Positions 3,445 through 26,785 of a stretch of DNA of 28,727 nucleotides are shown here, piece after piece (within the stretch, counting starts at the first letter, position 1; the number at the start of each line of letters is the position of its first letter). Source of the stretch: Eledone cirrhosa (lineage: Eukaryota); the NCBI GenBank assembly GCA_964016885.1, contig CAXHJY010000475.1, forward strand, positions 1 to 28,727, read 5' to 3'. A program made the translations under genes and the position numbers. The notes beneath the pieces were generated by a model. It saw only the letters and a program-made list of their open reading frames with translations. It did not search any database and was not told where the DNA came from.

Positions 3445-3822
3445 ATTATGAAGAGAGAAGAAACATTTAGATATAATTAGTAATAAGATGTATCATACCT
3501 AAACTGCTTCTAGATTCCTCGACTACGTAGTTTCGTGGCATAAACAAAAACAATACATCATAGAGATATAGAGCCTTTGCGAGGTCTGCCGACTTATCAA
3601 GAGGATACCTCGTTATACTAGCCTCAAGAGCACGTCTATATGATGTGAGATAGAATCCCAAAAGGCGGAGGGGGAGACAGTCACGTGATACAACGGTCAA
3701 GAAACAGAGCTAAGCCCCTTATAACCCCGAAAAAAATACCACAATCTCACAATCTAGAAGCAGTTTAGGTATGATACATCTTATTACTAATTATATCTAA
3801 ATGTTTCTTCTCTCTTCATAAT
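3445..3822. repeat. Perfect 72-bp inverted repeat with 234-bp spacer
   Basis: 3445-3516 is the exact reverse complement of 3751-3822; the right arm abuts (TA)n. Confidence 0.95.
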
Positions 3823-3992
3823 ATATATATATATATATATATATATATATATATATATATATATATATATATATATATATATATATATATACAAAGATCG
3901 GAATTAAGAGTATTCCGCAGTTCACTGTAATAATAATAATAGTATTAGCTCAAAGAAAAAATAGAGAATTTCCTTCTGAGCTCAAATGCAAG

Positions 3993-4108
3993 TATATATT
4001 ACACAAAGAGAAGTGTGTTACACAGTGAGATGTGTGTAAAGAATTATTACGAGTGTTTTTACCGTTACTGACTCACTGTGTAACACACTTCTCTTTGTGT
4101 AATATATA
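3993..4108. repeat. 37-bp inverted repeat with 42-bp spacer (MITE-like fold-back)
   Basis: TATATATTACACAAAGAGAAGTGTGTTACACAGTGAG (3993-4029) versus its reverse complement at 4072-4108. Confidence 0.9.
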
Positions 4109-4184
4109 TATATATTATATATATATATATATATATATATATATATATATATATATATATATATATATATATATAATAATAAAT

Positions 4185-4248
4185 TTGAAGATCCCGTTAA
4201 GGGTGAAAGCAGCGATTCTTTGCTTAAACTTTAATCTGTTATTTTAAT
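4185..4248 (+). repeat. Degraded HHR-bearing repeat, copy 1 (copy 2 at 7916-7979)
   Basis: TTGAAGA-TCCC gttaa GGGT-GAAA-GCAG cgattct TTGC-TT; the 62-nt block 4187-4248 matches 7918-7979 with one mismatch. Confidence 0.6.
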
Positions 4249-4600
4249 AAATATATATATATATATATATATATATATATATATATATATATATATATAT
4301 ATATATATATATATATATATATATACAACCACTATTATAGACACCATATATATTTCCGTGGGTACCTAGTACCTACTGGGATATCTATATCATTTATCTA
4401 ATTCTCTTTAATGTAGAGAAAAAAAAATGGTGTATCATGCTGCTATTTCTAGCAGCATGAAATATCAGCGAGTCTATAATTCCCTGCTATTTCTAACGGT
4501 CCAATAAGTGTGTGGGTCATTTTAACAGCTTGATTCATTCACTGGGCAGAGGGTGATATATTTACATCTATACGGACTTATGTCTAGTAGATTTGGAAAA

Positions 4601-4680
4601 GCTATCTGAAGAGCTATATCTTTCCATTGGAAATTCTCTGAATTTCCAATCTTTTGATAAGCGAAACCGTCGGTCATGGC
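4601..4680 (+). ncRNA. Type I hammerhead ribozyme, intact core, GUC site
   Basis: Stem I GCTAT/ATGGC (extends via TCTAGT 4583-4588/ACTAGA 4681-4686); CTGAAGA 4606-4612; stem II GCT/AGC + TATC/GATA + ATTGGAAATTC/GAATTTCCAAT; GAAA 4663-4666; stem III CCG-T-CGG; predicted cut after C4675. Confidence 0.85.
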
Positions 4681-4940
4681 ACTAGAAGAGGTAAATATTT
4701 AAATCGTATTTTAATTTATTTAAAAGATTGTTTAATGTTTACTTGTTCCGCTCATATATATATATATATATATATATATATATATATATATATATATATA
4801 TATATATATATATATATATATATATATATATATATATGTATATATGTATATATTATTCAAAATATTAACAAATGAAAAATATTCTCATAATCAAAATATA
4901 TATTTTATTACAACAATATGACCCTCCCCAAGTGTAACTA

Positions 4941-5008
4941 TATTTTATTATATATATTTCAAAGGTACTGTGTTGTTGCTTTTCAGTACGTCCTCATCAG
5001 ACAAAATA
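4941..5008 (-). ncRNA. Minimal type I hammerhead ribozyme, AUA site
   Basis: Minus strand: TATTTTGT-CTGATGA-GGACGTACTG[13 nt]CAGTACCTTT-GAAA-TATATA-TA-ATAAAATA; 8-bp stem I and palindromic stem III. Confidence 0.75.
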
Positions 5009-5236
5009 TATGATTTGATATATGACATACCGCTACGGTCTTGAATATTGAATTCCAGTATTGGCACTGATTTATTTCATCAAATCTGGAGTATAAATAA
5101 TATAACATCAAAAGATGATTAAAAGACTTCCATGTATTTTATTATGCGCATTTCAAAAACATTATTTTATTTTTTATATGTTGATTTAACACTTCACTGC
5201 TCGCAAGTGTTTTTTAAGCTTCATACCATGTCTCCC

Positions 5237-5307
5237 TATTTTATCTGATGAGAACGCAAATATCATCCCATGATGATATTTGTTTTTGAAATGCGCATAA
5301 TAAAATA
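5237..5307 (+). ncRNA. Minimal type I hammerhead ribozyme, AUA site
   Basis: TATTTTAT/ATAAAATA 8-bp stem I; CTGATGA 5245-5251; stem II includes perfect 11-bp CAAATATCATC/GATGATATTTG; GAAA 5288-5291; palindromic stem III ATGCGCAT; predicted cut after A5299. Confidence 0.82.
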
Positions 5308-5408
5308 CATGGAACTCTTAACTATCTTTTGATCTTATATTATATATATATATACTGCCAAAACTGGAATGAATCATCAGCACAGTTGTGGTATGTCAGA
5401 CATCAATT

Positions 5409-23722: not shown

Positions 23723-23862
23723 GTGAGTGACGGGCGGAAATAGCTCAAATTTATGTATAGATTTCAACGCTATCGCTTTCATTATTGACGACACGGGGTC
23801 ACTAATGATATAAGAATGAAAGTGGAAATATTATAAGGGTGAGGGCAGAGGGTCGGGCGACC

Positions 23863-24032
23863 TGTGGGATGTTGTGGGTCGTTGTATGGCGTTGTGGAGT
23901 GTTGTGGGATGTTGTATGGCGTTGTGGAGTGTTGTGGGATGTTGTGAAGCGTTGTATGGCGTTGTGGGTGTGTTGTGGGAAATTGTAGGGTGTTGTATGG
24001 CGTTGTGGGGGTGTAGTATGGCGTTGTGGGGT
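23863..24032. repeat. Decamer GTTGT(A/G)NNNN tandem repeat
   Basis: GTTGTATGGC/GTTGTGGAGT/GTTGTGGGAT units. Confidence 0.9.
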
Positions 24033-24361
24033 GAGTAGGAGGAGAGAGGGGTCGGGACATGAACCCAAACAATACAATACCGGAAGCTATGTGATGTGGC
24101 CCGCTACCGGTTCTGAGAAAACACGCCCTATTAGCTGGAATAATAGCGGTTGTTAAAGGGTATATATACACAACAGAGTGTATAGAATGTAGTCTATTGT
24201 TGTATAAACAACGAAACAATATAATGAACACAGAACTAGTTACAATGATGTATATATATATATATATATTTATATTTATATTATATATGTTATATTCATG
24301 TGTGTATATATATATATATAATTTATATATATTTATATTATATATATCAATATTTGTGCAT

Positions 24362-25015
24362 CAACCACCACACTAACAACACAATCACAGCTATCCACAC
24401 ACAATACACACCACACCACCACAACACCACCACCACCACACAACACCACCACCACCACTACACCACACCACACCACCACCACCACCACCACAACACCATC
24501 ACCACCGCCAACACCACACCACCACCACCACCACACCACTACACCACCACCAACACCACACAACCCCACCACCACCACAAACACCACCAACACCACACCA
24601 CACCACAAACAACAACACAATCAATGCTATCCATACACAACCACCACCACCACCACCACCACGCCACAACACCACACCACCACCACCACCACCACAACAC
24701 AACACCACCACCACCACAACACCACCACCGCCACCACCACCACCAACACAACCACCACCACCACACCACTACACCACCACCAACACCACACCACCCCATC
24801 ACCACCACACCACCACCAACACCACACCACCACCACCACACCACACCACACCACCATCACCACCACAAACAACACAATCAGTGCTATCCATACACAACCA
24901 CCACCACCACACCAACACCACCACCACCAACACCACGCCACAACACAACACCACCACCACCACCACCACCACCACCACACCACCACCACACCACCACCAC
25001 CACCACCACCACACA
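24362..25015. repeat. Degenerate (CAC/CACAC)n tract
   Basis: Direct inspection; spacer ACAATCA..GCTATCCA.ACACAA recurs at about 24381, 24617 and 24874 (~245-bp period). Confidence 0.9.
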
Positions 25016-25417
25016 ATCCTTCGCTACTGTTAATATTGGTTTAGTGGTATATCAGAATAACGGAATACTTGTCACTTAGTTCTTAGCTGGAGGCGTTTGT
25101 GTTCGGTTTGTGTTCGTTTTTACTTTTGTTGGTCTTACAATATATTCTCTTGTGTTCTGTTGCACTTATATTCTCTGTCTGTCTGGCTGGTTGTCTGTCT
25201 GTCTGCCTGTCTGTCTGTCTATATCTCTATCTGTCTGTCTGTCTGTCTCTCTATATAGATAGATATACCTGAAACTTCTCTCCAGATCTTTTGTTGATTG
25301 AGTGTATATGTGTCTGTGTATGTATGTATGTATGTATGTATGTATGTATGTATGTATATATATATATATATATATATATATATATATATATTAACAATAT
25401 CTTAACACAAAATATTA

Positions 25418-25477
25418 TATTTTATCTGATGAAAACACACTAAAATGTTGTGCCCTTGAAATACATATAATAAAATA
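25418..25477 (+). ncRNA. Minimal type I HHR, same family as 5237-5307, eroded stem II
   Basis: TATTTTAT-CTGATGA (25426-25432)-...CACA/TGTG...-GAAA (25458-25461)-TACATA-TA-ATAAAATA; downstream ATACTCCAGAT is shared with the minus strand of 5084-5094. Confidence 0.65.
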
Positions 25478-25607
25478 AATATGGTATTATAAAGATATTT
25501 TCCATTTATTAATATTGTTCATACTCCAGATAAATCCTGTAGAGTGCTTAAAATCTGTTATAAAATTAACTTTGTTGAGTGATAATCAACAAACCATATA
25601 TCTCATT

Positions 25608-26176
25608 GTTTATATATATATATTTTTATATATATATATATATATTTTTATATATATATATATATATATATTTTTATATATATATATATATATATATATA
25701 TATATATATATATATATATATATATATATATATATATATATATATATTTTTATATATATATATATATATATATATATTTTTATATATATATATATTTTTA
25801 TATATATATATATATATATATATATATTTATATATATATATATATATATATATTTATATATATATATATATTTATATATATATATATATTTATATATATA
25901 TATATATTTATATATATATATATATATATTTATATATATTTTTATATATATATATATATATATATATATATATATATATATATATATATATATATATATA
26001 TATTTATATATATATATATATATTTATATATATTTATATATATATATATATATATATATATATATTTATATTTATATATATTTTTATATATATATATATA
26101 TATATATATATATATATATATTTATATATATTTATATATATTTATATATATATATATATATATACATATATATATA
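25608..26176. repeat. (TA)n with TTT interruptions
   Basis: Direct inspection. Confidence 0.97.
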
Positions 26177-26178
26177 AA

Positions 26179-26456
26179 ATGGAAAACGAAGAATCAGCGA
26201 TACATCGGAACACAATTTACTACGTATTACAATTGTTTCTCCGGTGAACACCTTGAGGTGCGATCTGTTTGGGGATCGAACCTGACTCTGGATTCGCAAG
26301 TTCCTCAGATACGTCTAGTGATTTCTAAAAGAGGATTTGCTTCGAAGTCACTAGACGATTCACAAACAGATCGCACCTCGAGCCGTTCGCCGGAGAAACT
26401 ATTGTAATATGTTAATAAATTGTGTTTCGATACATCACTGATTCTTCGTTTTCCAT
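26179..26456. mobile_element. Fold-back/MITE-like element, ~100-bp imperfect arms with a nested hairpin
   Basis: 26179-26278 versus 26356-26456 (ATGGAAAACGAAGAATCAG / CTGATTCTTCGTTTTCCAT); inner CGTCTAGTGATTTC / GAAGTCACTAGACG. Confidence 0.8.
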
Positions 26457-26700
26457 ATTATTATTATACTCTGCTCTGAAGGAGCATAGAGTGCTCAACC
26501 GGCTTACCGCCTATGGACGCATCCAAGCAACCTTACTACATATATATATATATCCAGGGAGTGTAACTTGGAGTTACTGTAGGGTGAGCACTCGAAGTTT
26601 AGGTTCACTTCAGTGTGGAGGTGTAGAGCTAGACAGAGTGTATTATAGTGAAATAAGATAACAAGGACGATTGGTTACTCCTTCATTACGTACATTGGTT

Positions 26701-26785
26701 GGTGACGCACGTTTCGCCACTGACCAGCTCAAGGTTCGATCTGTATCGATCTGACCTGACTCTGTAATCTACGGCTCGTCAGACC
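26701..26785 (-). ncRNA. Type I hammerhead ribozyme, GUC site, large loop 2
   Basis: Minus strand: GGT-CTGACGA-GCC[54 nt]GGC-GAAA-CG tg CG-TC-ACC; canonical G10.1-C11.1; distal TACATT/AATGTA can extend stem I. Confidence 0.72.

Follow-up and report, generated by a model that had tools for sequence, protein, structure and literature searches.

The hammerhead ribozyme islands that lie among the (TA)n tracts of this stretch of the Eledone cirrhosa genome (28,727 nucleotides, hereafter the window) are probably the ends of Penelope-like elements (PLEs), of the Hydra clade wherever a parent was found, together with two non-coding tandem families, and most of them are likely to be short cDNAs that were primed directly behind the hammerhead at the front of an element's mRNA and ran off the 5' end of that mRNA. 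A preliminary description of the window had already proposed that the islands were PLE or retrozyme ends associated with (TA)n, and this is borne out; the class itself was already known. The insertions are listed below, with the number of candidates in the genome and their identity in brackets where available.

3290..3820, minus strand: family U insertion comprising a portion of the 594-bp non-coding tandem monomer and a 70-bp inverted arm (2687 candidates, 96-99% identity)
3516-3605, minus strand, core start 3600: family U hammerhead with a U3-A8 core, within the 3290..3820 insertion
4176..4250, plus strand: family H stub, core-truncated and fused to an inverted piece of its own tail
4326..4753, plus strand: family C, the greater part of one 468-bp non-coding tandem monomer, with a complete hammerhead at 4601-4680 (2184 candidates, 98-100%)
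4860..5080, minus strand: family B2 stub with a complete hammerhead at 4939-5010, core start 5000
5085..5340, plus strand: family B stub (3' end of a Hydra-type element) with an inverted long-tail arm and a complete hammerhead at 5237-5307 (2759 candidates)
5360..5515, plus strand: second family B2 stub, its hammerhead at 5409 carrying a private U4C change
6290..6558, plus strand: family D stub, hammerhead at 6441-6505 with stem I partly decayed in this copy (2418 candidates)
7204..7341, plus strand: family E stub running from the probable transcription start to the end of the long tail, with a complete hammerhead at 7205-7253
7378..7980, plus strand: family H insertion comprising inverted tail, 3' UTR and a U4A-core hammerhead at 7911-7962 (3265 candidates)
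8910..9110, minus strand: family G head-to-head pair, hammerhead at 8939-8998 with a private C3U change (1315 candidates)
9025, plus strand: truncated partner core of the family G pair at 8910..9110
9120..9308, plus strand: family P fold-back stub with only the 3' half of a U3-A8 hammerhead, starting at the TATA+29 initiator inside loop II
9408..9780, plus strand: low-copy tandem relic of 86-106 bp that retains the core, stem II and a palindromic stem III, stem I not closed (3 candidates)
10958..11086, plus strand: family E tail-only stub without a hammerhead
11101..11320, plus strand: family P fold-back stub
20112..20233, plus strand: family E-related stub, core-truncated
20293..20441, plus strand: family P stub
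21414..21603, plus strand: family P fold-back stub
25392..25610, plus strand: family K stub, related to B and B2, with a decayed hammerhead at 25418-25480
26179..26540, minus strand: family F head-to-head pair with a long tail and a complete hammerhead at 26222-26314 (3047 candidates)
26548..26795, minus strand: family A stub with a complete hammerhead at 26701-26785 and an extended stem I (4088 candidates)

The seven main motifs reported previously lie where they had been placed, all with full type I topology (core positions 4606+, 5000-, 5245+, 6447+, 7210+, 25426+ and 26782-), and are genuine type I hammerheads. These seven, and a complete family F motif at 26308- that the first reading overlooked, combine the CUGANGA and GAAA boxes with a UH site and three helices open at stem I; the helices are decayed in the copies at 6447 and 25426. 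Lacking part of this set are 9510+, the low-copy tandem relic of 86-106 bp whose stem I does not close, the motifs at 4185+ and 20112+, which are interrupted within the hammerhead core, and four family P half-hammerheads (GAAA to GUC) near 9183, 11195, 20316 and 21478, likewise overlooked. Of the other variants noted at first, two have cores that characterise whole families, namely the U3-A8 core of 3517-, present throughout family U (15/15 matched copies), and the U4A core of 7916+, present throughout family H (44/53 copies), but those at 5409+ and at 8941- represent decay confined to single copies: the former has a duplicate, C26, that reads CUGAGGA, and 12/15 copies of family G have CUGAUGA.

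Palindromic stem III and paired stem I differ in sequence across families while the helices persist. The suggestion that the helices are unrelated is correct only in part: stem I is common to 4941-, 5409+, 5237+ and 25418+, and positions 25410-25477 align to 4941-5016 with 71% identity. The window holds about 11 families, most of them high-copy.

The shuffle check proposed in the preliminary description returned 5-8 descriptor matches in the window, against a mean of 0-0.085 (maximum 1) when the non-microsatellite islands were dinucleotide-shuffled 200 times; one match, at 5431+, is a spurious long pairing. In the non-microsatellite part of 590 kb, six shuffles produced no canonical matches, compared with 62 observed. 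Together with genome-wide sampling, these controls already contradict the scarcely credible idea that AT-rich sequence produced the motifs by chance, or that they form a special local cluster serving some host function. Such an idea could draw on the folding energies, as MFE folding alone is not significant for most hammerhead copies (z-scores of -3.3 to +0.9), and on the 2.8-fold excess in the window, but it sits poorly with each family having a different stem III palindrome and with the hundreds to thousands of dispersed candidates in most families. An Rfam scan of the window returned no hammerhead family among the best 150 of 218 matches, being dominated by microsatellite-driven miRNA matches.

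The local archipelago originally envisaged fares less well. Under the descriptor giving 5 matches in the window, randomly drawn sequence gives 62 per Mb, placing the window only about 2.8-fold above background (P about 0.04-0.055, for a window chosen after the fact). There were 74 canonical motifs in 79 random 10-kb stretches, from which the number of dispersed hammerheads in the genome is estimated at about 187,000 (95% interval 130,000-248,000), and the sampled stretches are estimated to contain 20 or more families. Match counts rise with TA content (Spearman 0.36). Two sequencing runs, consisting of contigs only, have a high depth over the islands, which is uninformative on either copy number or expression.

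Families A, B, E and H continue directly into sequence coding for GIY-YIG (and RT), so that the simplest view of their stubs is as truncated cDNAs of autonomous elements. For family A, a GIY-YIG remnant lies upstream of the hammerhead end in locus L011, and for family B the domain lies about 950 nt upstream in L042 and L049; only the endonuclease end was found for either. Family H has an upstream GIY-YIG in L055 and L180, with RT in L055. Family E is represented by complete pLTR-ORF-pLTR elements at L329, L330, L333 and L334 and by an open 710-aa RT-endonuclease stretch at L332; the ORF is flanked by two same-strand hammerheads, the pseudo-LTR arrangement, in 4/6 family E loci. The order in this family is TATA, start, hammerhead, tail, ORF (RT, CxCX5C linker, GIY-YIG), 3' UTR, TATA, hammerhead, tail and (TA)n, which implies a hammerhead and a tail at each end of the unit. 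Families E and H have a single ORF encoding RT with a C-terminal GIY-YIG, the elements measure 3-4.6 kb between hammerheads, and the autonomous copies are young (97-98% identical). Hence the earlier view that any mobility would be in trans can be kept for the tandem non-coding families C and U, but not for A, B, E and H, which are contiguous with GIY-YIG elsewhere in the genome.

The L332 protein has RWR at 38, DKT at 116 and the CxCX5C linker, the last also present in the family B parent; its endonuclease has a single Cys only inside GIY..YIG, with CxxC and CxH around the conserved E and N, and no CCHH. RT3 and RT4 agree by eye with the Hydra rows of Fig. S1 of PMC8557442. By motif, and not by tree, the complete family E element fits every Hydra-clade feature of Craig et al. 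2021. Neptune, for which the RT motifs were also compared, and Nematis were rejected, both the CX2-5CxxC linker and the endonuclease CCHH being absent. Pfam gave nothing above the cut-off on the PLE proteins and nothing relevant for the Hydra-type proteins. No parent ORF linked to B2, D, F, G, K or P was found, and the clade of these families is assumed. Three other apparent links to ORFs were discarded: that of family C in L055, where a SINE and a TA tract intervene; that of a family H hammerhead in L192, where the ORF starts 473 nt downstream and is not contiguous; and that of the long P copies in L019, where the ORF is on the opposite strand.

Families C (468 bp) and U (594 bp) consist, in the copies seen, of non-coding head-to-tail units with one hammerhead each, and may have a coding parent elsewhere. 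A further family was encountered in random stretches, in tandem arrays of 7 and 19 units. Such arrays are what would be expected if the islands were mainly non-autonomous retrozymes, whose tandem units are cleaved to monomers, circularised and reverse-transcribed in trans, as is the ending of the arm at +37..+39, the predicted cleavage site, in 4/29 copies of family E. That small cluster is confounded by a local hairpin and TA microhomology, none of the 29 family A copies starts at the cleavage site, and A, B, E and H join directly onto ORFs and do not form tandem monomers. As a general claim, this origin is very improbable, and it is already contradicted by the complete family E elements.

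The form of the insertions is informative at both ends. The end of the tail is followed by a TA run in 64/65 family E cases (the exception continues into the ORF) and 50/50 family A cases, some loci being counted twice. Fixed 3' ends are of two kinds, a long tail and a short tail; head-to-head pairs are frequent, and insertions with an inverted 5'-truncated arm and a tail at one end only are also present. The motif GAGYRCT, which like the initiators was chosen after inspection of the data, occurs in 9/12 tails, and family H has a variant of it that differs by one letter; the shuffle probabilities are 0.007-0.056 each. Searches with the tails alone of families H and B, and with the upstream sequence of family P, gave no matches and are uninformative, the method passing over very common words.

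At the other end, the 5' ends of copies selected by their tails concentrate at one site per family. Among copies chosen by tail sequence alone, 13/29 of family E end at -6..-1 relative to C3 (P 5e-15 versus uniform) and 16/29 of family A at -34..-7 (P 8e-11), with no family A ends between -35 and -364. A TATAAA lies 29 nt before the family E cluster; in family H a TATA-like word lies at -38 and the initiator A at -5, and family A has an initiator A at -26 with no TATA box. In family P, 68/75 arms end -11..+6 from an initiator that is located within loop II, 29 nt downstream of a TATA-like word, a count subject to one-sided censoring by the anchor and taking in the two arms of each insertion. 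The +1 A follows a non-genomic G in seven P arms (2/7 ambiguous; a non-genomic A in none) and four H insertions. Such clusters, which fall on an initiator or 29 nt downstream of a TATA box and in some cases carry an additional G, are likely to mark transcription starts, and on this basis the 5' ends of the stubs likely correspond to the element's own transcription start. No clear promoter match was seen in D, K and C, and in family U the ends are dispersed without a strong cluster (30 loci, among them that of the window itself with its duplicate, and some neighbours in arrays).

RNA structure could account for three of these clusters, because those of E (-6), H (-5) and A (about -27, in a constrained fold) fall at the foot of stem I. 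The same elements might then have had their stub ends set by nucleases trimming the template to a folded, protein-bound ribozyme, or by the cDNA snapping back via the mirror image of stem I; microhomology to stem I is used at some family A junctions (L264). This seems unlikely, as the family P cluster falls inside loop II, 29 nt downstream of a TATA-like word, that of family B maps about 55 nt upstream of stem I, near -69, and the extra G is not predicted. A splice acceptor was also considered for the family H cluster, the U4A core there making CAG after a pyrimidine run.

Under front priming, the favoured reading, the GIY-YIG domain would cut both strands of a (TA)n tract and each end would prime reverse transcription at an internal tail site, a scheme with an in vitro precedent in an anole PLE, and GAGYRCT would be the likely recognition signal. 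Priming at the rear tail would produce long, variably truncated copies, and at the front tail hammerhead-only stubs of 140-270 bp ending at the transcription start. The ribozyme would cleave weakly, as a dimer via the palindromic stem III or with the help of a protein; it would be dispensable for insertion, and most stubs are probably inert. A broader version is more tentative, with somewhat less than an even chance of being correct: that Hydra-type PLEs prime at a conserved GAGYRCT tail behind the front hammerhead, that the stubs are fossils of capped starts, and that the genome contains 200,000-300,000 hammerheads, above any count found in the papers compared. Stubs beginning at a transcription start would account for the abundance of lone, 'minimal' hammerheads in animal genomes generally, and successful families with U4A cores or promoters in loop II would indicate that the elements can do without cleavage at the front end, or deliberately avoid it.

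What the hammerhead does in PLEs, and where the many lone hammerheads of animals come from, are standing questions. Here the ends of many thousands of insertions report where reverse transcription begins and stops. For testing, the system offers natural core variants as well as predictions of the start site and the recognition motif, no in vitro study of the Hydra clade having been found in the literature. The results also suggest that (TA)n-targeting retroelements are an under-annotated part of the genome, with many head-to-head pairs able to form double-stranded RNA. No earlier description of the 5'-end pile-ups, the shared GAGYRCT tail or a fixed U4A-core family was found in the literature, Lunse et al. 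2017, which may cover core variants or counts, lying outside the comparison; the two cephalopod repeat surveys examined do not mention ribozymes in their main text.

The closest known relatives are the Hydra-clade PLEs of Craig et al. 2021, which target (TA)n (PMC8557442, section 11 and File S1) and include a hammerhead-bearing family in Octopus, Hydra-1_Obim of Octopus bimaculoides. The elements described here share with that clade the C-terminal GIY-YIG without CCHH, CxCX5C linker, RW[K/R] and DKT, (TA)n targeting, a type I hammerhead whose stem III is palindromic and whose stem II frequently has a U-U pair at its base, and inverted 5'-truncated arms with an optional tail (PMC8557442). They differ in number, one octopus family appearing in the relevant parts of that paper against about 11 in one window here, and in length, being 3-4.6 kb between hammerheads rather than under 3 kb. 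U4A and U4C cores both occur here, but neither was found listed in its File S2, and no copy counts, 5'-end clusters or tail motif were found in its account of Hydra (PMC8557442).

As among the metazoan PLE hammerheads, minimal or with a small stem III, of Cervera and De la Pena 2014, there are many families per genome, presumed to be truncated PLEs, mostly as single dispersed motifs or opposite-strand pairs 100-700 bp apart, and the U3-A8 core variant is common to both sets (PMC4209133). Their counts were 2,000-9,000 hammerheads per genome, whereas about 187,000 are estimated here with a different descriptor, and lone motifs were put down to plain truncation (PMC4209133). The Poseidon element PAc of Anolis similarly has a hammerhead at the pLTR-ORF junction, and in vitro both target strands are cut and extended, with internal priming at two adjacent sites defining the tail (Frangieh et al. 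2024, PMC11167929). PAc belongs to a different clade, genomic 5' ends were outside that study, and the first matching ATG of family E is downstream of the tail and not, as in PAc, inside the ribozyme (PMC11167929). The C, U, L105 and L142 arrays resemble animal non-LTR retrozymes in being 468-594-bp non-coding tandem units with one type I hammerhead each, but most islands in the window are not tandem, unlike those of Cervera and De la Pena 2020 and Li, Clavereau and Pollet 2026 (PMC7229834; bioRxiv 10.64898/2026.07.22.740005). From the same sources, the axolotl has 126,247 hammerheads in a genome about ten times larger.

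The hammerhead islands of this contig are genuine and belong to a known class. All seven type I motifs of the preliminary description are there with the topology claimed for them, and five descriptor settings gave 5, 5, 8, 8 and 7 matches in the window against means of 0 to 0.085 in 200 shuffles, one of the window's matches, at 5431 on the plus strand, being spurious. The variant motifs of that description divide into two cores, each common to the copies of its own family, and a remainder that is decayed, truncated or relic; one complete hammerhead can be added:

3517, minus strand: U3-A8 core, in 15/15 copies of its family (U)
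7916, plus strand: U4A core, in 44/53 copies of its family (H)
5409, plus strand, and 8941, minus strand: private decay
4185 and 20112, plus strand: truncated
9510, plus strand: tandem relic of low copy number
26308, minus strand: complete hammerhead, not previously listed

Two CUGAAGA readings in family H are probably fold-back junctions. Four window islands, of family P, are limited to the 3' half of a hammerhead with the U3-A8 core, the complete form being present in L085, L234, L332 and L019 (L-numbers denote loci fetched from elsewhere in the genome). U3-A8 is an already described core variant, and no report of a U4A-core family was found in the literature searched. A recurring family with a U4C core, reported as a weak viroid variant (PMC3088659), and otherwise intact helices was also observed (L100 4760, L105 4737, L109 1001 and L121 5880).

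The level of hammerheads in the genome was studied in 79 stretches of 10 kb, taken at round coordinates and picked blind to content. With a strict canonical descriptor, 74 motifs turned up, of which 26 belong to two tandem arrays and a few look like chance matches. When the non-microsatellite portion of the first 59 stretches was shuffled six times, each shuffle gave none. With weighting by chromosome class, the sample implies approximately 187,000 dispersed hammerheads (bootstrap 130,000-248,000), or 282,000 with arrays included (159,000-461,000), by a descriptor that overlooks variant cores and copies in decay (the same sample has 7 U4A matches and about 4 credible ones for U4C). The five matches in the window amount to 174 per Mb against 62 in the random sample (P 0.036-0.055); rather than the proposed archipelago, the window is typical of a very large load spread over the whole genome, apart from being somewhat rich in TA. 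The highest count found in the literature searched is 126,247, in axolotl (PMC7229834 section 15), and the present figure is likely to be a record, only likely because the axolotl count was made with a different descriptor. A search of open-access papers found none on cephalopod hammerhead counts, and neither 'hammerhead' nor 'ribozyme' occurs in the accessible main text of PMC13282606 and PMC8967140. Tandem arrays are seen at L105 1-3730 (7 units) and L142 440-9320 (19 units), their retrozyme-like, hammerhead-bearing units of 468-492 bp each having an internal TA-rich tract and being unrelated to family C.

The window is an entire unplaced contig of a 3.0 Gb genome. Its host is probably an octopod, judging by repeat features, by a mollusc as the sole named protein relative and by the Hydra-clade family that PMC8557442 gives for Octopus. 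TA runs occupy 11% of it, versus 3.5% (large chromosomes) and 7.4% (small chromosomes) in random stretches. Positions 1-17250 are duplicated with 90-100% identity on another sequence of the assembly, C26, at about 2327830-2345300 (L051-L053), and the contig could be a segmental duplicate or a haplotig; the duplicates part ways within a 63-bp satellite. Other features of the window are as follows:

12280-20043: about 114 copies of a 63-bp satellite, with a short second block and strong strand skew in C and A
22879-23707: about 12.7 copies of a 66-bp satellite
22517-22846, minus strand: open frame of 110 aa that may resemble the C-terminus of a protein from a non-LTR retrotransposon
9786-10088, 12089-12267 and 26858-27041: abundant SINE-like repeat, one copy of which breaks a family H 3' UTR in L055, with target duplication
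1927-2450: TA-flanked repeat, recurring in L009, L056 and L100
3890-4101, 5530-5680 and 6630-6760: further TA-flanked islands, two palindromic

First-look searches of the genome returned candidate counts of 4088 (A), 2184 (C), 2759 (B region), 2418 (D), 526 (E), 3047 (F), 1315 (G), 3265 (H) and 2687 (U), which are not copy numbers, just 40 being scored per search. Copies have 3' ends fixed at (TA)n and variable 5' ends, frequently with a head-to-head partner, one arm being longer-tailed; this is the layout given for Penelope-like elements (PLEs) in the legend to Fig. 2 of PMC8557442. A TA run follows the tail end in 64/65 occurrences of E and 50/50 of A, some loci having been fetched twice.

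In several families the 5' ends cluster. Families E and A were searched by tail sequence alone, to avoid selecting for the ribozyme, and direct-arm starts were measured relative to core position C3. For E (30 of the 40 scored loci; n=29 without its own copy), starts fall at -6 to -1 in 13, -25 in one, +2 to +10 in three, +37 to +39 in four and -223 or beyond in eight. For A, 16/29 lie at -34 to -7, nine start within the ribozyme or tail, four lie beyond -364 and the stretch from -35 to -364 has none; in 6 of those nine, the partner arm reaches the -15 to -30 zone. A uniform spread is rejected for both (P 5e-15 for E, 8e-11 for A). Among 28 distinct H contexts outside its own search, 15 have genomic sequence upstream (one of them flagged so in error) and the remaining 13/13 end at -7 to +4, a tally in which some insertions contribute two arms and the 4185 copy of the window is included. 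Eight of 14 incidental B copies start at -72 to -67, and 68/75 P arms end within -11 to +6 of one A, with one-sided censoring and arms that are not independent. Family U has no strong 5'-end cluster. No paper on such clusters in PLE stubs was found among the open-access papers searched.

These clusters could mark the foot of stem I or a promoter. In E, H and A they coincide with both, E having TATAAA 29 nt upstream, H a TATA-like word and an initiator, and A an initiator at -26. P and B separate the two readings, because their sites lie in loop II (P, 29 nt past a TATA-like word) and about 55 nt before stem I (B, 26 nt past one). Seven P arms (two of them ambiguous) and four H insertions have an extra, non-genomic G before the +1 A, whereas an extra A is seen in no P arm; such a G is expected when reverse transcriptase copies a cap. 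If transcription begins at the putative start in P, the RNA would be missing the 5' half of its front ribozyme. The Drosophila Penelope promoter is reported to sit in the pseudo-LTR (PMC2377424). According to Frangieh et al. (PMC11167929), both target strands are cut and then extended by a PLE protein, which primes internally at two adjacent sites that define the tail and has no need of ribozyme cleavage. Since the family E unit has a hammerhead and tail at each end, priming at the front copy would yield exactly such stubs.

Palindromic stem III suggests cleavage as dimers, which is reportedly weak in vitro for motifs of this kind (PMC4209133). An arm ends at the predicted cleavage site in 4/29 E copies (nominal P 1e-4), confounded by a local hairpin and TA microhomology, and in no A copy. 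The role of these ribozymes is described as unknown in PMC7761336.

GAGYRCT is present in 9/12 tails, with a one-letter variant in H (per-tail shuffle probability 0.007-0.056, for a motif picked after inspection), and absent from C and U. It is a candidate recognition site, and is also visible in coral and sea-cucumber consensus sequences of the (TA)n-targeting Hydra clade of PLEs. The motif occurs in the island at 5530-5680, because of which this and the islands at 3890-4101 and 6630-6760 are likely to be PLE ends lacking the hammerhead part.

As the preliminary description had stated, PLE coding sequence is absent from the window; elsewhere, GIY-YIG lies contiguously upstream of A (L011), B (L042, L049 and, with a deletion, L047), H (L055, L180) and E (L208, L213, L214, L222). 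No parent elements were found for B2, D, F, G, K and P. In L180 and L055, the family H 3' UTR has a consensus-like splice donor near its start, and the 5' edge of the hammerhead has acceptor-like AG dinucleotides, one made by the U4A core. Other PLE types are present in the genome (L057 2721-3737; L073, L077 and L100), namely a Penelope/Poseidon-like RT-GIY-YIG frame and a second type followed by its own short-stem-III hammerhead. In family E, hammerheads flank the ORF on both sides in 4/6 loci fetched whole, and L332 has an open stretch of 710 aa that starts at the first ATG and takes in the endonuclease. Its protein has RWR, DKT, CxCX5C, CxxC and CxH, without CCHH, matching the Hydra-clade marks of PMC8557442 section 11; File S1 of that paper gives Hydra-1_Obim a preference for (TA)n, and File S2 its hammerhead. 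This makes the class a known one, as had been claimed, and one already recorded in octopus. Families C and U, which in the copies seen have another monomer upstream and not an ORF, fit non-LTR retrozymes. Beyond the known class, the analysis contributes an estimate of its scale, clusters at putative start sites, a tail motif and core variants that are fixed.
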